Virus record (IMG/VR): IMGVR_UViG_3300010354_000110
Location: 1-56,541 of that record
DNA from: a virus
Taxonomy: Duplodnaviria > Caudoviricetes
Length of the DNA stretch: 56,541 nt
Strand: one strand, 5' to 3'
Below are positions 13,446 to 51,645 of the stretch, piece by piece. Within the stretch, counting starts at the first letter, position 1; each line of letters starts with the position of its first letter. Under the pieces are notes generated by a model, which ran no database searches, was not told the origin of the DNA, and was given only the letters and a program-made list of their open reading frames with translations. A program made the translations under genes and the position numbers.

Positions 13446-15498
13446 CATCGAGACAGACGCCATTGATGCAAGCATTGTACACTGTATCGCCGTTAGGGAT
13501 TGTAACTCCGGGGCTGCTGTTTTGTACGGCCCTGATGCGATTCTTGCTGGGTTACAGCACATAAGTGAAGCAGACCGCCTGTTTGCCCACAACGGCCTGT
13601 CCTTTGACATCCCAGTACTCAATCGTCTCCTTAACTGGGAGCCTAAAGAGACCACAGAGGTCATTGATACCTTGATCTGGTCTAGGTTCCTATATTCAGA
13701 CCTAGCTAAGAACGATCTGAAGGCTTACGGAGACGATGAAGAGGCCGAGTTCAAAGCATTGATCGGCAAGCATTCGCTTGAAGCCTGGGGCAAACGCCTT
13801 GGGGTTCACAAGGTCGACTTCCAAGGTCCGTGGGAGGTATATACCCAAGAAATGGGTGACTACTGCCTTGCAGACACCGCAACCAACATGGCTATTGTTC
13901 GTCACTTCATGGGAATGAACTGTACGAACTTTACTGCATTGAAGATCGAACATGACTTTGCTTGCATCTGTAACAAGATGACTGAGACTGGTGTTTGCTT
14001 TGATGTTGAGAAGGCTAAGGCACTGCATGCTTCATTGAAGACCGATCTTGAAAGACTGACCACAGAGATCACTAGCGACATCCCGCCCACTGTGGTCCAG
14101 ATGAAGACTCCAGAGTACTATCTAGCTACTTGGCCTGATGGTACACAGCAGCAGTTCCCCACGAAAGGTGCTGCAGATGCTGCACGTAAGGTCTTGAAGT
14201 ATCGTCCTCGTGATTGCTCAATTACTGCTGGTCCAGTTGCTCAGAAGATTATCCCATTCAACCTGAACTCACGTCAACAGGTACGTGAGCTTCTATACCA
14301 ACGTCATGGGTGGCTGTCCCCTGCTCTGACTGAGACAGGTGAGAAGATGGTCGGTCAGTTATCAGGTGAAGAACTTGCTCGTGACTATGGCAAGCTGTCA
14401 GAAGAACTCTTGCGGGAGTGTCCTTTTGAGATTGGTAAGCAGTTAGCTGACTATTATCTGATAACCAAAATCAGCAGCTTCCTGCTCAGTGCGGATGAGG
14501 ATAAGGGTTGGCTGACGATGTGCGGTGATGGTAGGATTCACGGACGGATTATTACAATTGGGGCAAGTACCTTCCGTTGTACCCACAACAGTCCCAATGT
14601 TGCTCAGGTGCCTCATACAGCGGTAGGTAAGGACAAGCAGCCCCTATTCGGGCTACAAGGCCGCTACGGGGCAGATTGCCGCTCTCTGTTCATCGCTAGT
14701 CCTGGGTATGTGATGGTCGGTGCTGACCTGAGCGGGATCGAGGCTGTGATGTTGGGGCACTTCCTCTATCCCTACGATTCTGGAGAGTTTGCCAAACTGA
14801 TCGCAGCAGGAGACATCCACAGTCGGAATGCTCAGGCGATCCGTGACTTCGGGGGGTTTGCTATCAGTCGTGGTGACTCCAAGGGATGCTTCTATGCTTA
14901 CCTGTATTCTGCGGGTGACATGAAACTGGGCCAGGTGATGATCTCGACCACTCCGGACGCGGCTACCTACTACGCTGATAAGCGGGACTGGTTCCGGAGA
15001 AACCCAGGAGCAATTTCTTCCAAGGTGTGGTCAGACGCACTGAAGGCTCGTCGCTTGGCAACAGCAGAGGAAGCGGCACTCATCGACATTGGAGGCAGAG
15101 TACGTACATCCTTGGAGCAGGGTATTACGGGTCTGGCTGATCTAGGAACAGCCGTACAGACTGCCGCTAAGCGAGGCTATCTGAACGTCTTTGACAGACG
15201 GATTCCTATCAGGAACACGCGAGCAGCCCTCAACGCATTGTTACAAGGCTCAGCAGCCCTGATTAACAAGCAGTGGGTTGTTCTGACGGATCGGCGTTGT
15301 CGTGAGCAGGGTGTTGTGTATCGGCCACTAATGACAATTCACGATGAGTACGACGCTGAAATGCTACCGGAGTATGTTGAAGCATACTCTAAAATCTGCC
15401 TTCAGTCAATTGGTTTGGCTGGAGAGTACTACAAGATTCGCCTGCCGGTTACCGGTGAGGTTAAGCAAGGGGCCTCGTGGCTTGCAGTCCACGCTTAA
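13429..15498 (+). CDS. family A (T7-like) DNA polymerase with 3'-5' exonuclease domain
   Basis: Exo motifs FDIETD, AHNGLSFD, YCLAD; pol motifs PNVAQVP, GADLSGIE, RGDSKGCFYAYLY, LNALLQG, IHDE. Confidence 0.95.
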   Translation: MDLVFDIETDAIDASIVHCIAVRDCNSGAAVLYGPDAILAGLQHISEADRLFAHNGLSFDIPVLNRLLNWEPKETTEVIDTLIWSRFLYSDLAKNDLKAYGDDEEAEFKALIGKHSLEAWGKRLGVHKVDFQGPWEVYTQEMGDYCLADTATNMAIVRHFMGMNCTNFTALKIEHDFACICNKMTETGVCFDVEKAKALHASLKTDLERLTTEITSDIPPTVVQMKTPEYYLATWPDGTQQQFPTKGAADAARKVLKYRPRDCSITAGPVAQKIIPFNLNSRQQVRELLYQRHGWLSPALTETGEKMVGQLSGEELARDYGKLSEELLRECPFEIGKQLADYYLITKISSFLLSADEDKGWLTMCGDGRIHGRIITIGASTFRCTHNSPNVAQVPHTAVGKDKQPLFGLQGRYGADCRSLFIASPGYVMVGADLSGIEAVMLGHFLYPYDSGEFAKLIAAGDIHSRNAQAIRDFGGFAISRGDSKGCFYAYLYSAGDMKLGQVMISTTPDAATYYADKRDWFRRNPGAISSKVWSDALKARRLATAEEAALIDIGGRVRTSLEQGITGLADLGTAVQTAAKRGYLNVFDRRIPIRNTRAALNALLQGSAALINKQWVVLTDRRCREQGVVYRPLMTIHDEYDAEMLPEYVEAYSKICLQSIGLAGEYYKIRLPVTGEVKQGASWLAVHA

Positions 15499-15512
15499 AT
15501 AAGGGGTTTGTG

Positions 15513-16316
15513 ATGGCTGGTGTGTGTGTTAATTTGTTAGGGGAGACGTTCGGGCGTCTCCGAGTTGTGGGCGGTCCGTTTATAGAAGACGGCTGCACTT
15601 GGTGGCTATGTGCTTGTGATTGTGGGAATGAGACGAAAGTACGAGGAGGTTCTTTACGATCAGGGGCCACCAAATCTTGCGGGTGCTATGCTAGATCACA
15701 AACAGCGATAAGGAGCAAGACGCATGGAATGAGTAAGACTCCTGTATATCATACTTGGAGGTGCATGCTTTCTAGGTGTTACTATAAAAAAGATCGGTGC
15801 TATGCGATCTATGGAGGAAGGGGTATCGTTGTATGTGATCGCTGGAGAGAGTCGTTTGAAAACTTTTATGCAGATATGGGAGACAAGCCTTCTAGTAACC
15901 ACAGTCTAGACAGGATCGATTCAGATGGCAACTACTGTCAAGCCAACTGCCGCTGGGCAACACCGACAGAACAAGCTAACAACCGAAGAAACAGCATTCG
16001 TGTGTGTATAGACGGAGTATCTAAGTCTCTTGCCGACTGGGCCGAATTTTATGGGATACGGTTGAATACAATAGACACCCGTATTGCACGCGGGTGGTCT
16101 TATGAAGAGGCGGTATGCGGAAGACCACGAAAAAAGCGTGCTTGCCATACTAATCTTTATTTTGTAGATGGTGCCCATCTCAATGTAAAAGACGCAGCAA
16201 AAAAGTATGGTATGCCGCAATCAGCGGTGCGTGAAAGATTGAACCGTGGGTGGACGATTGAAGAAGCCCTGACAACACCTATTCAGGCGAAATTTAAGCC
16301 AAAAGGTCAACAATGA
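15513..16316 (+). CDS. HNH homing endonuclease with duplicated C-terminal HTH-like module
   Basis: HSLDRIDSDGNYCQANCRWAT; two R..RGW..EEA repeats. Confidence 0.88.
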   Translation: MAGVCVNLLGETFGRLRVVGGPFIEDGCTWWLCACDCGNETKVRGGSLRSGATKSCGCYARSQTAIRSKTHGMSKTPVYHTWRCMLSRCYYKKDRCYAIYGGRGIVVCDRWRESFENFYADMGDKPSSNHSLDRIDSDGNYCQANCRWATPTEQANNRRNSIRVCIDGVSKSLADWAEFYGIRLNTIDTRIARGWSYEEAVCGRPRKKRACHTNLYFVDGAHLNVKDAAKKYGMPQSAVRERLNRGWTIEEALTTPIQAKFKPKGQQ

Positions 16317-23110: not shown

Positions 23111-23883
23111 ACAGAGCATTTTAAAGGCCTGTTTGCAGTACAATTTGATATTGGAAATGCCCATATGGACCACAAGGTAAAATCGGGTCCTATTTGCAGA
23201 TATGTCGGAATGTTCCGACATATCGATATAGTGTATTAGTGTAGTAATACACCTACTAAGTACACTCTACCTTGCATATATGGACCACAGTGATTACCCA
23301 TATACCTATCAAATCTAAGTAATAGGAGTAGCTAAATATGAGTAATGGTAAGCCAGGTACTATCTAAGCCAGGTGGTCAGATAAGGTAGGGTTATTGGTG
23401 GTGGGTGGTGGTGATAGATGGTGGTGGGTGATGATAGATGATGTATGTGTGATGTTCGGTCCGGCCCTACGGGGGGAGGGGGAAATCAAGCGGAAAGCCG
23501 GGTGCAGCAACGATTTACGCTCCCCAGGCGTCACGCATCGTTCCTTGGGAGACGGTATCAGTCAGTTAGTTCGGCCTAGTTCGACCATCGGCAAAGCCAA
23601 GATCGGCGAGCGGTTGACCTCATTCCAAGTCGGCGAGCAAGCGAGAATCCAGGCTTCCCGCCATATTGACAGGATAGGTCATCTGCCAAAATGGCAGGGT
23701 CGGAATTTCCCCCATACCAGAAACCACTTCCAAGGTAACGGTTTAAGAAAATCGAAAATCCTCCTGGATTTTTCCGATACTGATATTCCTTTCCGCTTCT
23801 GTGGTCGATACCTTATTGTAGTTGGTTGTGGTGTTGAGTCGATGGGCGACTCAGCCACTAGCGGCCCCGAAGGGAGTAGACAA

Positions 23884-30143: not shown

Positions 30144-31550
30144 GTGTCCAGTGTTTTCGATGCAAGCCGCTACCACACCGACAAAAGGCCCTACAAGGTT
30201 ACCGGTGGTACCATCTCTTCAGCAGGTTTACGGCTTGTTGAGGACTATCTGAATTTCATGAATGATTGCACGATCGATCTACGCCAAACGGTTAAGTCCT
30301 ATGGTGTATGGATCGGAATGCACAAAGCAGATATTGATGCTGCACAGTCCACAACGGCAATCACAAATATTGTTGATCGCGTTCGAGGCAGTTCGCGGTT
30401 CTATTCTGGGTTGTGGTTAATGCCCGCTAGCGGGCATTGTTTGGGCCAATACAAAGAGAATGCTAAGGCTTATCTCAATAAGCTGGTGTCATTTTTCGCT
30501 GATGTGCTGGAATTCCGCTCTACTGTGAAAGGCATGCCCTATCTGCAAAGCATCGAGCAGTATATCGGGTCTGACTGGCTGGTCACTGGGAAAGGCGACT
30601 ATGTTGGAACATTCCCGAAGCGGGTTGCTAAGTGGCTGTTCAAACGACACGGAGTGAAGCTCAGTGCTTCACATCTCCAGACTATCGGTAACTTGGTTTC
30701 TGACCACGTATCCAAAGACTCTGCGGATATCTACTTGGCGTTCGACCAGGAGTATACGGAAGGCTCTGAGGCCAGGGACTACTGCCATCACGACTCCTGC
30801 TGGTGGGGAGAAGGTCGCAAAGGTCTGCGGGAAGGTTTCGTGAAAGAGGGTGGCTGGGCTATTCGGCAGTTTGATGGGTATACACCCACCAGCCGCTGCT
30901 GGATCGTCTGGGATAAGGAGCATAGTTGCTATGTCTTGTTCAATGCCTACGGAAAAACGGACTTGGCTAACTTCTCACGCAATCTCTCGACGGCTTGGGG
31001 ACTGTCGTACTCACAGGCAAGCCTGTATCCGGACAGGGACGAGTACTTCATCAATAGCGATAAGTGCTACGTGATTGCTGACCCTGTAACCGCAGAGAAA
31101 TTGGCAGGCACAGAACTCTATGTGAGTTGGCACAAGCCTATCAAGCCTCTGATTCAATGTCATTGCTGTTGCGAGCATTTTCCAGAAGATGAGGCAGACA
31201 CCGCTCGATCTGCTGACGGTATTGTTCAGGTATGTCCTGACTGCCTACCGTCGCACACACATACCTGCAATCGCTGCTACAACAGATTTGTTGATGATGC
31301 GATGTCCAGCACCCGTCAGGGGTATTGCATTGCGTGCTCTGATTATGTCAACCCTTGCCGCTGCTGCAACAGTCAGCTTACTGAGCAGACCTATTGCGAA
31401 TCTTGTGTGCGGGTGTATAATCTGATAGACGTGTATGAGATCGACTGGGAATCCATGACCTATCGATTCATTCCTGCACAGATTCCTCCGCATGTGCTGA
31501 ACTCTGGTGGTTCAGTAAGTACAGCACCACAAACCACAGTGGTAGGGTGA
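30144..31550 (+). CDS. hypothetical protein with CxxC array; paralog of 24288..25994
   Basis: ARDYCHHDSCWW, LFNAYG, FINSD, then CxxC repeats; GGAG RBS. Confidence 0.75.
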   Translation: MSSVFDASRYHTDKRPYKVTGGTISSAGLRLVEDYLNFMNDCTIDLRQTVKSYGVWIGMHKADIDAAQSTTAITNIVDRVRGSSRFYSGLWLMPASGHCLGQYKENAKAYLNKLVSFFADVLEFRSTVKGMPYLQSIEQYIGSDWLVTGKGDYVGTFPKRVAKWLFKRHGVKLSASHLQTIGNLVSDHVSKDSADIYLAFDQEYTEGSEARDYCHHDSCWWGEGRKGLREGFVKEGGWAIRQFDGYTPTSRCWIVWDKEHSCYVLFNAYGKTDLANFSRNLSTAWGLSYSQASLYPDRDEYFINSDKCYVIADPVTAEKLAGTELYVSWHKPIKPLIQCHCCCEHFPEDEADTARSADGIVQVCPDCLPSHTHTCNRCYNRFVDDAMSSTRQGYCIACSDYVNPCRCCNSQLTEQTYCESCVRVYNLIDVYEIDWESMTYRFIPAQIPPHVLNSGGSVSTAPQTTVVG

Positions 31551-32649: not shown

Positions 32650-32856
32650 ATGCACATAGAGCCTATCATCGTGACGAACGGTTCAATCTCATACAGGGGA
32701 CTGATTAAACCTAACGGACAGTGGGCATACTTCATGTCTCCGAAGCAATTTGACCGAGTACTATCTGAAGGAGTAGAACGGCTTTCTTCTCATTACTGGG
32801 AGTCGTGTGCTCCTGGTGCATCTTGGAAAATCGTACGCCTCAAGAGGATCGAGTAA
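32650..32856 (+). CDS. small protein, tandem paralog 1
   Basis: Ends WKIVRLKRIE. Confidence 0.6.
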   Translation: MHIEPIIVTNGSISYRGLIKPNGQWAYFMSPKQFDRVLSEGVERLSSHYWESCAPGASWKIVRLKRIE

Positions 32857-32997
32857 ATGTCAGAACATCGTGTACCTGTCCTGCTGATAGCAAGGAATGG
32901 AGTGAGCTACCATGGTTTCAAGTGGGGGGAGCACTACTACGGATATGTGAGCAACCCAGGAAACTTCCGAATTGTCCAATTGACAAGGATTGACTAA
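32857..32997 (+). CDS. small protein, tandem paralog 2 (46 aa, not in ORF track)
   Basis: MSEHRVPVLL...SYHG...FRIVQLTRID*; abuts both neighbours. Confidence 0.6.
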   Translation: MSEHRVPVLLIARNGVSYHGFKWGEHYYGYVSNPGNFRIVQLTRID

Positions 32998-33215
32998 TGC
33001 CCGAGAAAATTCCTGTTGTGCTTAAATTTTCGGGGAGTCAGGGCGATACGCTGTATGGGGCCATGGACCCAGTGTCTAATACAGTCGCTGTTGGCTCTTA
33101 CCCTGGTGCAATAGAAGACCACCTTGCCAGAGTGTCGTACAGGGTTGTAACCTACACTGCCAACTTCCTGACATCGCTAGGGTGGCGTATTCTGCCCCTA
33201 ACAAGGATCGACTGA
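32997..33215 (+). CDS. small protein, tandem paralog 3
   Basis: MPEKIPVVL...LYG...WRILPLTRID*. Confidence 0.6.
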   Translation: MPEKIPVVLKFSGSQGDTLYGAMDPVSNTVAVGSYPGAIEDHLARVSYRVVTYTANFLTSLGWRILPLTRID

Positions 33216-33907
33216 TGAACACTGTCATTGCCTACATGCGTGTCTCAACTGACAAGCAAGACTCTATCGATACTCAGCAGGCAGCAATCAAACGCTACTG
33301 CGAGTACAACAACCTGACAATCGTTGGGGAGTACGTAGAGTCTCAGTCAGCATCGACCGTTGATAGACCACAGTTGCAGGCAGCACTTGCCAGACTAGGC
33401 ACGGACTGCTCAGGACTCGTGGTGTACAAGGCTGACCGGCTGAGTAGATCGCTCAAGGACTTACTTACCCTTCTGGACACCTACTTCAAGACACACAAGC
33501 TCCATGCTGTGGTCGATAAACTCGACACATCAACAGCAATGGGGACTGCCTTCGCTCAGTTGACTGGTGTGTTTTCTGAACTTGAACGATCAACCTTGAT
33601 CGAGCGTACAAGGGCAGGACTTAGGCACAGGAAGGAATCAGGCATGACCTACTGCCGTAGGCTGTATGGGTATGCCGGTGCCTCTGGTAAGGAACTGGAA
33701 GCAATACCAGCAGAGCAGAGAGTACTGAAGCAGATTCTGGAGAAAAGACGACAGCAGTGGTCTTTCCAGAAGATTGCCGACTGGTTAAACTCTCAGAACA
33801 TTCCTGCCCCTAACAGCGGCAAGCAGCACAAGGATAAGCCGGTCTCTGGTGACTGGCATAAGGGAACAGTTCACAGGATTTGCGAGAGGGCATTGGTGAG
33901 TCAATGA
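33215..33907 (+). CDS. serine recombinase (resolvase family with short recombinase domain)
   Basis: AYMRVSTDKQ catalytic Ser motif, RPQL, DRLSRS, DTSTAMG, FSELERSTLIERTRAG; TGATG overlap at the start. Confidence 0.92.
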   Translation: MNTVIAYMRVSTDKQDSIDTQQAAIKRYCEYNNLTIVGEYVESQSASTVDRPQLQAALARLGTDCSGLVVYKADRLSRSLKDLLTLLDTYFKTHKLHAVVDKLDTSTAMGTAFAQLTGVFSELERSTLIERTRAGLRHRKESGMTYCRRLYGYAGASGKELEAIPAEQRVLKQILEKRRQQWSFQKIADWLNSQNIPAPNSGKQHKDKPVSGDWHKGTVHRICERALVSQ

Positions 33908-33913
33908 GTACGC

Positions 33914-33988
33914 TTCCCTGTAGCTCAATCGGTTAGAGCAGCGAACTCATAATTCGTTGACAGAGGTTCGCGAATCCTCTCGGGGAAA
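33914..33988 (+). tRNA. tRNA with CAT anticodon (Met or Ile2), 9-nt T-loop, no encoded CCA
   Basis: Acceptor TTCCCTG/CGGGGAA, D arm GCTC..GAGC, anticodon arm GCGAA-CTCATAA-TTCGT, T arm AGAGG-TTCGCGAAT-CCTCT. Confidence 0.8.
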
Positions 33989-34015
33989 TGCTGTCCGATG
34001 TTCGGATGGTTGCCA

Positions 34016-34096
34016 GCGGCTTGGTCCGGTAGGGTCTGGCGTGGCAAGGTTTGGTGAGGCTGGCTAAGGTCTGGCCGGGTAAGGGGTCTAACGACC
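34016..34096 (+). ncRNA. NN-GGY pentamer array 1 (14 units) with terminal hairpin; candidate guide RNA
   Basis: GC-GGC TT-GGT CC-GGT AG-GGT CT-GGC GT-GGC AA-GGT TT-GGT GA-GGC TG-GCT AA-GGT CT-GGC CG-GGT AA-GGG, then hairpin GGTC-TAAC-GACC. Confidence 0.75.
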
Positions 34097-34109
34097 ATTC
34101 ACAGGAGAG

Positions 34110-34766
34110 ATGACAATGCGAAAATTCGACTTCGTTCTCACAGGCTTCATGCCTCTGCTCATGCACGCCGATGATATCGATGGTGCAGATGAATTGGAGG
34201 CATGGCGGAAGAATCCAAGAAACAAGAACATCAGTAAGGCTGGTGATGATCGCTCACCAGCATGGACATGGCAGACCTACCTATACCACCACAAGGGGTG
34301 TGTGGTCATGCCCAGCGAAAACATCATGGCAGCCCTGCGAACAGCCGGTGCCCAGCTGATTCTCAAGAAGCAGAAGACCTTCAAGGAAGTGTCTCAAAGC
34401 GGTCTGCTGATTGAGGGTGAGTGCTGCAATTTCTACAACGCCGGAAAGGCTGTCAGCTACGACCAGATTCAAGCCTTCCGAGATGAGCCTTGGCAGACCC
34501 ACATCCAGAAGGTTGAGTCGATGGGCTTCACGTTGTTCAAGAAGCGTGCTCGGGTGGGGACATCAAAGCACATCCGGGTGCGGCCTAAGTTCGATTCGTG
34601 GTCAGTCACCGGTACGATCATGGTGTTGAAGGAAGAAATCACACAGCCAATTCTGGAGCAGTTGTTCCAGTTGGCCGGTCGTGCTGGTCTGTGCGATTGG
34701 CGACCTGGTTGTAAGACACCAGGACCATACGGACAATTTGAGGCATCGCTGACCGAAGTCAAATAG
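34110..34766 (+). CDS. stand-alone Cas7/RAMP-like protein flanked by NN-GGY arrays
   Basis: N-terminal strand FVLTGFMPLLMH; VVMPSENIMAALR (cf. Cas7 IPGSSlKGalR); RVRPKF; C-terminal Gly-rich loop GLCDWRPGCKTPGPYGQF. AGGAG RBS. Confidence 0.7.
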   Translation: MTMRKFDFVLTGFMPLLMHADDIDGADELEAWRKNPRNKNISKAGDDRSPAWTWQTYLYHHKGCVVMPSENIMAALRTAGAQLILKKQKTFKEVSQSGLLIEGECCNFYNAGKAVSYDQIQAFRDEPWQTHIQKVESMGFTLFKKRARVGTSKHIRVRPKFDSWSVTGTIMVLKEEITQPILEQLFQLAGRAGLCDWRPGCKTPGPYGQFEASLTEVK

Positions 34767-34770
34767 TGTT

Positions 34771-34846
34771 GCGGTAAGGTCAGGCTTGGCTTGGCACGGC
34801 GAGGCGCGGTGCGGCGAGGTTTGGTCCGGCAAGGGAGCGTAAGCTC
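34771..34846 (+). ncRNA. NN-GGY pentamer array 2 (13 units) with terminal hairpin; candidate guide RNA
   Basis: GC-GGT AA-GGT CA-GGC TT-GGC TT-GGC AC-GGC GA-GGC GC-GGT GC-GGC GA-GGT TT-GGT CC-GGC AA-GGG, then hairpin GAGC-GTAA-GCTC. Confidence 0.78.
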
Positions 34847-34866
34847 ATTTCACACAAGGAGACAGC

Positions 34867-35355
34867 ATGTTCAAACACGATCCAGAGATTGCTGCCAAGG
34901 TAGAAAGCCTCTACCAAATGGCAAGAGGAATGCAGAGAGGGGATACCCTCCTGTGGTCACAGATCGAATCACATCTCCAGATGACTCGCAATGAGCCACG
35001 GATGCGGTACATTGTTGCAAAGTGGCGGAAACGCCTGCTGACACAGGACAAGATTGAAACATGGAAAGAGCCTAATGTTGGAATCAGGCTCTTGCACGAT
35101 GGTGAGTGTATCAGTGTTGTTGCTGTCAAACGCAACAAGTTCGCTTCACGACATCATACCAAGATTCTTAAGGCAATGGGTGTTGCCCGCAATGAGCAAC
35201 TCAGCGACAATGAGCGGTTGATGAAGATTGCCATTACTGACCACAGCAGGGAGGCAAGGTCTTCTGCCCGTCGTGCTGCCAAGGCCGGGAATGTTTCTTC
35301 TGACCGTCAGAAACTGCTTGCTATCATCCAACAGGACCGGCCATGTTCACAGTAA
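34867..35355 (+). CDS. basic hypothetical protein, possible accessory of the RAMP/array locus
   Basis: AAGGAG RBS directly after array 2; Arg/Lys-rich with a possible winged-helix N-terminus. Confidence 0.7.
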   Translation: MFKHDPEIAAKVESLYQMARGMQRGDTLLWSQIESHLQMTRNEPRMRYIVAKWRKRLLTQDKIETWKEPNVGIRLLHDGECISVVAVKRNKFASRHHTKILKAMGVARNEQLSDNERLMKIAITDHSREARSSARRAAKAGNVSSDRQKLLAIIQQDRPCSQ

Positions 35356-35480
35356 TCATCGATTTCGGCAGGTCTAAACAGGAAGTCACTGTTCAGACTT
35401 ACAAAGATGCTCTGGATAGGGCAAAGTTCGAGCGTGAACGATATCCAGAAGCAACTGTGTCCATTGAACCTGCGTTTTGA
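35343..35480 (+). CDS. small hypothetical protein (45 aa, not in ORF track)
   Basis: MFTVIIDFGRSKQ...PAF*; overlaps the upstream stop; AGGA RBS. Confidence 0.45.
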   Translation: MFTVIIDFGRSKQEVTVQTYKDALDRAKFERERYPEATVSIEPAF

Positions 35481-37234: not shown

Positions 37235-38080
37235 TTAATCCAGCAAGAACTGCGGTGGTCTATTGGAGTCTAGATCGTAGTACCTAACAGGCGGTTTATT
37301 GCCTGCGTTGTACCACTGCTTGATTGTCTCACCATCAACTAGACCACCTCTGCGACAGGCAGTAACGTACTCAGTAGGAACCTTCAACTCAGAAGCTGCA
37401 AAGTGGTCCTGCCTCTCTTTGCCCCTGACGACCACATAGTTGTGCTTATGCCAGTAGGTGTTTGAAGGGATGTAACCCTTACGAGTGTCTCTGGTTTTCA
37501 GCACATGGGCATTGGAAGGCCTCTCTCCTACGTCTTCCAAGAACTTACCGAAGGACTTCCTCCAGGGTGGATGTGTATCATCGAACTCAAGGATACCCTC
37601 CCAGACTCGGTACTCTTTAGGATGTGTGGTCCTGTTAGCCACAGCAGCAAAGAGCCTGAAGTCGTCTTCTAGGATTCGATAATCCTGTCTAGCCGGAACA
37701 TGAGTGAGGTCCAGCGGCTCCGCAGAAAAGACAGGCCAAGGATAGTACCTAGCCGCGTGGTCAGGGTGGTAATTGCAGTGCCGACAAGACCACGGTAGTT
37801 CTCGCATCCTGAAATGTTTGAACTTACCGAGTATGGTTGCCTTGTAGAAGTTAAAATTCACTCTAACATAGCGACCACACTTACACCGCATAAGCCATCC
37901 GATCGCTCTATTGGTGCGATTAACTATCACAGCAACAAAGGACATCATGCCGATCTGGAAGTCTTCTGGATGTGCCTGAGCATCGTTGCTGAGCGTCGTG
38001 CCTTCTGTATACGACCTGTTTGGCTCAGACCACTGACCATCTATCAGTTCAAGTAGACCACCATCTGCAATCGACGGCAT
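37235..38080 (-). CDS. degenerate HNH-family-derived protein
   Basis: WLMRCKCG, HPKEYRVWEGI, WRKSFGKFLEDVGERPS..HVL..RD..KGYIPSNTYW; catalytic tail altered. Confidence 0.6.
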   Translation of the reverse strand: MPSIADGGLLELIDGQWSEPNRSYTEGTTLSNDAQAHPEDFQIGMMSFVAVIVNRTNRAIGWLMRCKCGRYVRVNFNFYKATILGKFKHFRMRELPWSCRHCNYHPDHAARYYPWPVFSAEPLDLTHVPARQDYRILEDDFRLFAAVANRTTHPKEYRVWEGILEFDDTHPPWRKSFGKFLEDVGERPSNAHVLKTRDTRKGYIPSNTYWHKHNYVVVRGKERQDHFAASELKVPTEYVTACRRGGLVDGETIKQWYNAGNKPPVRYYDLDSNRPPQFLLD

Positions 38081-39080: not shown

Positions 39081-39236
39081 TTATTTAGGACGCTGAGCAA
39101 TGCGATCATCAGGTATTCGACACCTGCAATCACCATCACAACAACGACCACAGCGGGAGTACCGACACTCGTCAACGATGTCGGATGCCCCACATTCAGG
39201 GCAACGAGAGGGTTTAAGGCTACAGTCTGTTCTCAT
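39081..39236 (-). CDS. small Cys-rich protein (51 aa, not in ORF track)
   Basis: MRTDCSLKPSRCPECG...RCGRCCDGDCRC...; ATG overlaps the HNH stop. Confidence 0.5.
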   Translation of the reverse strand: MRTDCSLKPSRCPECGASDIVDECRYSRCGRCCDGDCRCRIPDDRIAQRPK

Positions 39237-40027
39237 GTGTTCCTCTTGGAGGGTTGTGTGAGGGCACGCTCGATTTCCCAGCCGCTATCGAGTCTACTTC
39301 GTAGTGTGTTATAAGAGATGCCAAGAGCCTCTGACCACTGTTTAATTGTCCGCACTTGACCATCAAACGCAACAAATCGACTGGTCCTCTTGTTGTTATT
39401 CTGCTCTTCGCTTGTTGCCCAACGACAGTTCTCTCTGCAATAGCTGCCGTTTACATCGATTCTATCTAGTGTATGGTCAGACGATGGCTTATCTCCCATG
39501 TCCTTGTAGAAGTTCTCGAAAGAGAGCCACTCTTCGCAGACAACAATACCACGACCACCATAGTTTTTATAGCGATCTCTATTACTATTGGTGCATCGTT
39601 GGATCATCGAGTTCCACACCCCGTATATCGGAGTCCCCGCTTTGCCGTGCTTTGTGCTGGAGCAACCGCATGACACAGTGCCACCGGTTTTTAGACTGGT
39701 CCCGCTGACAGAGACAACAGAGCCACAAGAACAGGAGCACCTCCAAAAAGCACGACCGTTTTTCCCTGAGTGTGAAAAACCGACAACAGACAGTCGACCG
39801 AAGCACCTACCAGTCAGGTCGTCGATAAACAACCTCTTACGGGGCGATGCTTTAAGACACCCACAAGACTTTGTACTGCCTCGTTTTAGACAGTTGCCTG
39901 CAACAACCACGGATTTACCACAGGAGCAGAGACACTCCCAACAAGAATGCCTATCCGGTCTTTTATGAGAAAAGCCGACAACAACTAGCCGAGTAAAGAC
40001 CTTGCCGGTCAGATCATAACGAGGCAT
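39233..40027 (-). CDS. HNH homing endonuclease
   Basis: Two DLTG..F.RL..W.C.CSCG..SCGC modules; HTLDRIDVNGSYCRENCRWAT. Confidence 0.88.
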   Translation of the reverse strand: MPRYDLTGKVFTRLVVVGFSHKRPDRHSCWECLCSCGKSVVVAGNCLKRGSTKSCGCLKASPRKRLFIDDLTGRCFGRLSVVGFSHSGKNGRAFWRCSCSCGSVVSVSGTSLKTGGTVSCGCSSTKHGKAGTPIYGVWNSMIQRCTNSNRDRYKNYGGRGIVVCEEWLSFENFYKDMGDKPSSDHTLDRIDVNGSYCRENCRWATSEEQNNNKRTSRFVAFDGQVRTIKQWSEALGISYNTLRSRLDSGWEIERALTQPSKRNT

Positions 40028-40208
40028 TGTGTTCCCCGTATGTGAGTTTTTCGGTTTCATCCTTGTATCTCTGTGCGTCCATGTACAGGCCCGACCAGAC
40101 TTGCTGCCAGAGTTCCTCACGTAGACTACCTACGACAAGTCGAAGACGGGCAAGCTCATCTTCAAGACGATTCACATTGATTACAGACTCAACACTGCTG
40201 CTTGTCAT
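40014..40208 (-). CDS. hypothetical protein
   Basis: AGGAG RBS; coiled-coil-like. Confidence 0.55.
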   Translation of the reverse strand: MTSSSVESVINVNRLEDELARLRLVVGSLREELWQQVWSGLYMDAQRYKDETEKLTYGEHNASL

Positions 40209-51569: not shown

Positions 51570-51645
51570 TGGTGGAGGCCAGATTTGAACTGGCGATCTT
51601 CAGCTAATGAGGCTGACGGGGACGACCAGACTCCCCTACTCCACT
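51570..51645 (-). tRNA. tRNA-Met(CAT), initiator-like
   Basis: AGTGGAG/CTCCACC with 1:72 mismatch, GGGG..CCCC D stem, TCAGC-CTCATTA-GCTGA, AGATC variable loop, GCCAG-TTCAAAT-CTGGC. Confidence 0.82.

Follow-up and report, generated by a model that had tools for sequence, protein, structure and literature searches.

We analyzed a 56,541-nt stretch of DNA from an uncultured tailed phage (Duplodnaviria; Caudoviricetes), the IMG/VR virus record IMGVR_UViG_3300010354_000110, hereafter the window, which is estimated to be 55% complete. The block under study comprises a tRNA, a gene for a Cas7-like protein (vipr), two arrays of 5-nt units of the form NN-GGY (Y, pyrimidine), and a vap1-like accessory gene, and we read it as a very likely Viral Interference Programmable Repeat (VIPR) system, whose arrays would encode guide RNAs (vrRNAs). 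VIPR systems have been reported in bioRxiv 10.64898/2026.04.26.720920 and its companions.720927 and 2026.10.15.759431, and a language-model survey (10.64898/2026.10.21.760802) gives 99 VIPR-like array clusters; these papers are cited below by their last six digits. The features of the block, with its open reading frames (ORFs) and ribosome-binding sites (RBSs), are as follows.

33914..33988, + strand: tRNA-Met (anticodon CAT), by ARAGORN and the Rfam tRNA model
33989..34015, + strand: leader from the tRNA to guide 1, with a 9-bp hairpin (about 33990-34010) in the minimum-free-energy (MFE) fold and the units ATGGT and TGCCA
34016..34085, + strand: vrRNA1 repeat tract of 14 units, one degenerate, with terminal AAGGG, by reading and register scan; NN read-out GC TT CC AG CT GT AA TT GA TG AA CT CG AA
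34085..34102, + strand: vrRNA1 3' tail, GGUC-UAAC-GACC plus ATTCAC, abutting the vipr RBS, by folding and family covariation
34110..34766, + strand: vipr, Cas7-like RAMP protein; ORF start 34110, likely start codon ATG at 34116
34771..34835, + strand: vrRNA2 repeat tract of 12 perfect units plus AAGGG, by reading and register scan; NN read-out GC AA CA TT TT AC GA GC GC GA TT CC AA
34835..34853, + strand: vrRNA2 3' tail, GAGC-GUAA-GCUC plus ATTTCAC, abutting the vap RBS, by folding and comparison with relatives
34867..35355, + strand: vap1-like accessory gene, 162 aa, by its family in relatives and hhalign to Vap1 of Escherichia phage SUSP1

Both arrays were recognized by direct reading and by a register scan that covered every 5-nt register on both strands of the window. 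Array 1 (34016-34085, +) contains 14 units of 5 nt, namely nine perfect NN-GGY units, a degenerate TGGCT at 34061-34065, three further perfect units, and a final AAGGG, and array 2 (34771-34835, +) contains 12 perfect units and AAGGG; the first unit of each has NN = GC. The tracts run into hairpins with a 4-bp stem and a 4-nt loop (GGUC-UAAC-GACC at 34085-34096 and GAGC-GUAA-GCUC at 34835-34846), followed by ATTCAC after array 1 or ATTTCAC after array 2 and then by the AGGAG-type RBS of the next gene. Two leader units, ATGGT and TGCCA, precede array 1 from 34006 and are conserved in a close relative, locus L039. Elsewhere in the window, no run of at least five NN-GGY units was found on either strand, the longest other runs being of 4 and 3 units. 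By our own arithmetic, one unit arises by chance with a probability of about 0.03, and nine consecutive units are expected about 3e-9 times in 2 × 56.5 kb; among 740 shuffles of related loci, one array of at least six units appeared. A preliminary description of this DNA, made from its letters alone, had reported two arrays of 5-nt period around a 218-aa ORF, their shared GC start, AAGGG end, tetraloop hairpin of the same shape, ATT(T)CAC and RBS, and the absence of such arrays elsewhere in the window, and each of these observations was confirmed. Its statement that GGY is constant holds for array 2 and its 12 perfect units but was slightly overstated for array 1, which contains the TGGCT unit. 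A GT-rich tract at 23373-23443 (+), with periods of 20-23 according to TRF, includes a pseudo-array (23373-23422, +) in which 6 of 10 pentamers are NN-GGY; we did not accept it as a vrRNA, as it has no RRGGG-hairpin tail and overlaps an ORF start.

The vipr ORF (34110..34766) encodes 218 aa, but the true start is probably the ATG at 34116, giving 216 aa, because the RBS abuts 34110 and most homologs have 215-216 aa. Neither Pfam nor PADLOC returned a match for Vipr. It does match the solved Vipr chain of SUSP1 by sequence, with an identity of 24%, and its fold is that of RAMP/Cas7 proteins, with an RRM core, a thumb hairpin, and a glycine-rich loop; the best structural matches were Csm3 (type III-A) and Cas7 of type VII, at sequence identities of 8-16%. 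In SUSP1 Vipr, residues H17, R138, D177, W178, and R179 read G1, G2, and Y3 of the repeat (720927, section 5). These align to H19, R158, D196, W197, and R198 of the window protein, all five of which are invariant among 34 family sequences; additionally, E71 and M72 of SUSP1 align to E70 and N71, respectively. The RAMP/Cas7-like fold suspected in the preliminary description was thus borne out, whereas its view of vipr as a solo gene was not, since a conserved vap1-like accessory gene follows at 34867-35355.

We then compared the locus with its relatives. A word-based search returned 964 Vipr-related proteins at E ≤ 1e-3, and an exhaustive profile search returned 1,568 representative clusters at the same threshold, 242 of them at E ≤ 1e-30. 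Among these relatives, 117 loci were compared: 14 viral, 23 from named genomes or metagenome-assembled genomes (MAGs) of many phyla, and 80 from metagenomes. Arrays of at least six units lay beside vipr on the same strand in all 14 viral loci and in 17 of the 23 genome loci, the remaining six genome loci being short, partial, or very distant matches. When the window was included, 104 of 118 sources had arrays of at least eight units on the vipr strand, and the opposite strand had 0. As a positive control, the array caller recovered the published SUSP1 layout of one vrRNA upstream and three downstream. Across 275 unique arrays, the entropies of the five positions were 1.96 (N1), 2.00 (N2), 0.15 (G), 0.17 (G), and 0.67 bits (Y), with Y being C in 85% and T in 14%. 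Homologs therefore carry flanking arrays in which GGY is conserved and NN is hypervariable, even between loci whose Vipr proteins are 95-97% identical, which is the pattern that the preliminary description had anticipated.

The vap1-like protein (162 aa) had no Pfam or PADLOC match, and a word-based homolog search returned only two relatives. tblastn placed a vap-like gene after vipr in 8 of the 14 viral loci, and a locally iterated profile detected the family in 73 of the 117 loci, downstream of vipr in 65 and upstream in 8. BLASTP against SUSP1 Vap1 was not significant (E 0.18); a 29-sequence profile (A2) aligned to SUSP1 Vap1 with an hhalign probability of 96.5% (E 8e-10, 90 columns) and to the neighbor gene in Pseudomonas phage LESphi2 with 80.7% (E 1.3e-5). 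The same profile gave nothing significant against PDB sequences, and an Atlas search for the protein returned unnamed viral clusters only. The structural model (pLDDT 93.1) has an N-terminal domain of the order H-E-H-H-E-E and a long helical hairpin, and the protein is predicted to combine a winged-helix-like N-terminal domain with that hairpin. Foldseek returned nothing at E ≤ 1e-3 for this model, and the weaker rows (best E 0.077) were mostly winged-helix DNA-binding regulators, which fits the description of Vap proteins as 'WH-like' or 'HTH-like' in the legend of fig. S21 of 720920. In natural infection by SUSP1, both vipr and vap1 are needed (759431). Of 65 loci of the clade, 60 have a guide between vipr and vap; a guide ending no more than 120 nt upstream of vipr is present in 59 of 93, and 40 of the 59 relatives with enough flanking sequence have one after vap. 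The window has a guide upstream of vipr and one between the genes, with no array after vap; in SUSP1, vipr and vap1 abut.

Taken together, we consider the locus (tRNA-Met, vrRNA1, vipr, vrRNA2, and the vap1-like gene, all on the + strand) to be a VIPR system of a tailed phage, closest to the published type II, with a probability of about 0.88. It has a Vipr of the RAMP family with the GGY-reading residues, pentamer vrRNAs with hypervariable NN and a structured tail, a vap gene, and a viral context without CRISPR; its arrays of 14 and 13 units compare with published vrRNAs of 9-16 units, at least 4 being used for calling (720920). The preliminary description had pointed to a match with VIPR systems, and this was correct: the papers exist, and Vipr matches the solved SUSP1 chain. 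The locus is not a class 1 CRISPR-Cas system, as the window contains no repeat-spacer array, no cas1 or cas2, no Cas5 or Cas6, and no large subunit, leaving the Cas7-like fold as the only common trait. Indeed, a comparison of 54 window ORFs with PADLOC yielded no cas genes, the lone CRISPR-labeled match being a PrimPol model on the phage primase-helicase, and repeat scans of the window found no CRISPR-type interspaced repeats, in agreement with the earlier claim that both are absent.

Homology to vap1 points to type II; this assignment comes from remote vap1 homology alone, and the layout differs. The traits that the locus has in common with type II VIPR (SUSP1, NC_028808.2, and a Pseudomonas fulva prophage) are the GGY-reading residues, guides that are 12-14 units long and lie on the same strand as vipr, a 3' tail with secondary structure, an accessory gene of the vap1 family, and a phage-borne setting that lacks a nuclease, a CRISPR array, and a self-target. 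Compared with SUSP1, however, Vipr is only 24% identical, the homology to Vap1 is visible by profile comparison only, a guide separates vipr from vap, a tRNA-Met stands directly upstream, and the RRGGG is followed by a short 4-5-bp hairpin instead of a long pseudoknot tail. In the last respect, the window is more like the LESphi2 locus. LESphi2 (L129, OQ594955.1 2900-7478) is a cultured phage of P. aeruginosa that encodes a Vipr homolog of 29.5% identity, three upstream GGY-NN arrays, and a vap-like neighbor; the annotation gives a CI repressor and a sigma factor as adjacent genes and labels every gene of the locus itself hypothetical. The CRISPR Cas7 subunits (Csm3 and type VII Cas7) have the same fold and, according to the VIPR papers, the same mechanism of polymerizing on a guide with a fixed period and bases flipped out at intervals. 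They differ from the system described here in that the latter has a 5-nt period in which three bases are sequestered and two are read, is phage-borne, and is accompanied by no CRISPR array or cas genes. The locus adds to a known system class, its modest variants being the guide between the genes, the short covarying hairpin tail, the tRNA linkage, and a natural guide fusion, and it leaves the published picture of VIPR action unchanged. It is a well-resolved environmental example, from a freshwater tailed phage, of a newly described class of RNA-guided DNA-binding systems that is thought to be older than CRISPR, and the surrounding clade spans many bacterial phyla.

By homology with SUSP1, the system may act as follows. 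The block would be transcribed rightwards and the two guides cut out, with the upstream tRNA and the 3' hairpin tails helping to define or protect the ends. Vipr protomers would polymerize along each guide, one per pentamer, with H19, R158, D196, W197, and R198 holding the GG and the pyrimidine and leaving NN exposed, as suggested by the cryo-electron microscopy of SUSP1, in which each GGY is shared by two adjacent protomers and the target skips one base per two read (720927). The 13-14 exposed NN pairs would then read double-stranded DNA, skipping one base per two read, over a footprint of about 38-41 bp. One protomer per GGY, a displayed NN, and a gapped target had been proposed in the preliminary description, in agreement with the published SUSP1 structure. 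Because neither protein has a nuclease domain, transcription would be blocked without cutting; the winged-helix Vap1-like protein may assist, as Vap1 does in SUSP1, and by analogy the targets would be competing mobile elements of the host.

The guides turn over between close relatives. Vipr of L039 and L040 is 97% and 95% identical to that of the window, respectively. Upstream of vipr, L039 retains the tail and RBS as well as the tRNA, in which only a 2-nt gap and a single substitution set it apart; its leader differs from that of the window at one position (in the ATGGT unit, T/C) and its repeat tract at many. This upstream guide of L039 has 13 repeat-register units against 15 in the window, the two leader units being counted in both, and its NN content differs from that of vrRNA1. 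Downstream, L040 carries the body of guide 2 of the window, altered at one NN (AC to AT) and by C/T exchanges at two Y positions, and L039 carries a different guide at that position. Guide cassettes thus swap between loci of 95-97% identity, with leader and tail conserved. In independent freshwater runs, too, contigs depart from the window mostly within array 1.

A second kind of change is a deletion. Compared with L039 and L040, the window is short of exactly 139 nt at the junction of the last GGC of guide 2 with its AAGGG tail. What these relatives have in that place is the tail belonging to the first guide, then a tRNA-like element and a second guide's body. A DNA contig from run X4, independent of the window, likewise has 139 additional letters, exactly between 34830 and 34831. 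Because of this deletion, we read vrRNA2 of the window as a fusion in which the body of one guide has acquired the tail of the next; repeat tract and tail are both complete and meet in register. The cassette swaps, the deletion fusion, and the covarying hairpin tails described below provide natural evidence for guide turnover, which bears on how VIPR guides renew without an acquisition machine of the Cas1-Cas2 type.

The repeat tracts of the clade end in RRGGG (AAGGG in 133 of 275 arrays), and in 218 of the 275 arrays RRGGG is followed by a 4-5-bp hairpin. Single-sequence folding of the two window tails was no better than that of shuffles (z 0.04 and −1.02), so the support for the hairpin is comparative. 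We aligned 74 junctions, one per locus plus the two of the window, picked by the NNGGG junction and not by pairing. Pairing cells amounted to 74.1% against 58.4% when shuffled (0 of 500 shuffles reached 74.1%), and the covariation score was 0.376 against 0.137 (0 of 500), with slid partners scoring at most 0.156; changes on both sides occurred in four of the five base pairs. SUSP1 tails are much longer than those of the window clade and form a pseudoknot (720920; 720927), although P. fulva complexes without a pseudoknot are noted in the structural paper (720927). The tails of LESphi2 are AAGGG-hairpins like those of the window.

The tRNA-Met (CAT) called by ARAGORN ends 27 nt before array 1 and scores 61.6 bits with the Rfam tRNA model against a gathering score of 29 (L015 1305-1379). 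The order tRNA-Met-vrRNA1 is also present in L039, and L039 and L040 additionally show the order vrRNA-tRNA-like cloverleaf-vrRNA: between their two downstream guides, ARAGORN reports a 'tRNA-Ala(GGC)' (L039 2887-2959 and L040 797-869), which the window lacks owing to the 139-nt deletion. This element folds as a cloverleaf with a canonical GTTCGAATC T-loop (MFE −36.1 kcal/mol, z −3.3). A G3:U70 pair is expected of tRNA-Ala, and by our own reading the acceptor stem of the element has none; Rfam did not report the element at E ≤ 0.1 either, and we use no stronger term for it than tRNA-like. In the 58 further loci scanned, no tRNA was called except for one odd ARAGORN result in L010, and Rfam found no ribozyme at E ≤ 0.1. 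The tRNA-Met is possibly co-transcribed with guide 1 and may serve as a processing signal. We tentatively suggest that the guides of this lineage may be punctuated by tRNA elements from which host RNase P and RNase Z release them. In this layout, each guide would also serve as the 5' leader for vipr or vap mRNA and so tie guide supply to protein supply. The hammerhead-interspersed VIPR arrays of types I and V (720920, legend of fig. S19) similarly have a self-contained RNA element between or beside the guides that could define their ends, but here that role would fall to a tRNA (in the window and L039) or to a tRNA-like cloverleaf (in L039 and L040), which the host enzymes would cut. The word 'tRNA' is absent from the main texts of 720920, 720927, and 759431, and 'tRNA-like' from 760802, supplements not covered. 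If true, vrRNA maturation would have a third route in addition to those known from staggered and from hammerhead-interspersed arrays. As compact designs found in nature, the short hairpin tail and the tRNA-linked layout could guide the engineering of vrRNA expression.

Targets were searched for with each GGY replaced by one wildcard, as published (methods sections 26 and 27 of 720920). In the 56.5-kb window, the best matches of 19/28 and 17/26 fell within the range of unit-shuffled guides, and we therefore find no self-target, in line with what 720920 reports for other VIPR loci. The viral collection was scanned six times for exact matches to 9-unit windows of both guides under the 1-nt-skip rule, with 0, 1, 0, 0, 8, and 0 loci returned. 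These nine loci collapse to three independent sequence groups and extend at chance level beyond the 18 forced bases: L119 (21/26, but 3/8 unforced bases) falls within an ORF that resembles a tape-measure gene, in a phage of high GC content, L120-L123 (22/26) are four copies of a single sequence, in an 80-aa ORF with a GC content of 41%, and L124-L127 (19-21/26) lie in terminase-like genes with a GC content of 27-32%. All eight matches in L120-L127 are in codon register and encode HLFT[DE]AA[DE]F; in L124-L127 (about 993-1026), the peptide is HLFTEAADF, with nine successive guide 2 units matched by its codon positions 1-2. We judged all nine loci to be chance matches, since there were three independent events against a rough expectation of 1-2 chance hits per scan, the extension was at random level, and the GC contents were unlike the 49.5% of the window.

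Broader searches gave a similar result. When 281 family guides were compared with 510 kb (the window and related loci), 7 real and 6 shuffled matches reached at least 85%, a null-level result for cross-targeting. The closest cellular carrier of a Vipr relative was a Planctomycetaceae MAG (63% identity), and none of 398 genomes of its order, which may not be that of the host, matched either guide at three or fewer mismatches. For guide 2, the only guide searched there, none of the three genomes holding L016, L017, and L034 had a match. The NN composition of the family correlated best with codon positions 1-2 of both sense and antisense strands (r 0.55 vs 0.26 and 0.06 for the other registers) but barely beat a uniform model, a weak hint consistent with wobble-skipping.

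Regarding expression, 24 sequencing runs were listed, one of which (X24) is an RNA library; the data are at the contig level. X24 contigs of 90-99% similarity, which represent a relative, cover 34472-34716 in vipr and 34838-35020 and 35173-35323 in vap; a further covered stretch, 35323-35398, spans the vap end and part of the small ORF that follows. That a sequence occurs in an RNA library is no proof of its transcription. No X24 contig covers either array, which, with hypervariable guides and contig-only data, says nothing either way. A scan for consensus promoters and terminators in the window gave 4 sites where 2.2 were expected and 0 terminators, with nothing notable.

Several of these results weigh against the interpretation as a VIPR system closest to type II: the low identity to SUSP1 Vipr, the dependence of the type on a single remote homology, the possible impairment of either guide by the degenerate unit or the deletion fusion, the want of a convincing natural target in the viral collection and in the 398 genomes, and the want of a notable promoter or terminator in the consensus scan. 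The same machinery might instead use its guides to silence host genes during takeover or to tune the phage's own programme, as the failure to find a mobile-element target in the viral collection would allow; host genes had also been considered as targets in the preliminary description. We regard this as unlikely: no self-target exists in the 56.5-kb contig (about 55% of the genome), published targets lie in satellites and prophages for 18 of 20 SUSP1 and 48 of 66 P. fulva cases (720920), and an arms race is a better match than housekeeping control for the guide turnover seen among near-identical phages. It is less probable still that the locus is decaying, with orphaned guides and a system that no longer acts. 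The 139-nt deletion relative to L039, L040, and the X4 contig, with the resulting guide 2 fusion, the TGGCT unit, the missing array after vap (present in 40 of 59 relatives), and the lack of a target for either guide would fit such decay, but vipr and vap are intact with all key residues present, the fusion joins a complete tract in register to a complete tail, and internal degeneracy is described as frequent in vrRNAs (720920).

Whether the filament reads DNA can also be questioned, as the best structural matches, Csm3 and type VII Cas7, target RNA. For SUSP1, however, double-stranded DNA binding, targeting of either strand, and an R-loop triplex have been described (720920; 720927), the GGY-reading residues are common to both Vipr proteins, and no catalytic or effector partner was found in the locus, so we hold RNA reading to be very unlikely. 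A reading of the arrays as DNA-level repeats (protein-binding or recombination sites, or G-rich structural DNA), with which the missing array transcripts in X24 would agree, is the most improbable of these explanations, given the strict strand bias (0 opposite-strand arrays in 117 loci), the compensatory changes in the 3' hairpin, and the vrRNA transcripts and co-purification shown for SUSP1 and P. fulva (720920).

Other genes of the window include those for a terminase, a portal protein, DNA polymerase I, a primase-helicase, thymidylate synthase, a methyltransferase, and HNH endonucleases. A small serine recombinase gene (33182-33907, +), in whose product Pfam detects a Resolvase N-terminal domain (E 1.3e-34) and a Recombinase domain, is located directly upstream of the tRNA-vrRNA1-vipr block and is shared with L039 at about 80% DNA identity. 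Three small ORFs in succession, of 68, 46, and 72 aa (32650-33215, +), resemble tandem paralogs, with the similar ends …IVRLKRIE, …IVQLTRID, and …ILPLTRID. A 468-aa protein (30144-31550, +) with no PHROG match at E ≤ 0.01 is dense in CxxC-type cysteine pairs in its C-terminal third. Three genes of the HNH endonuclease family (15477-16316, +; 39233-40120, −; 37235-38080, −) may encode homing endonucleases, the first of them standing directly after the DNA polymerase gene. In addition, a second tRNA-Met (CAT) is located at 51570-51645 (−), far from the VIPR locus.

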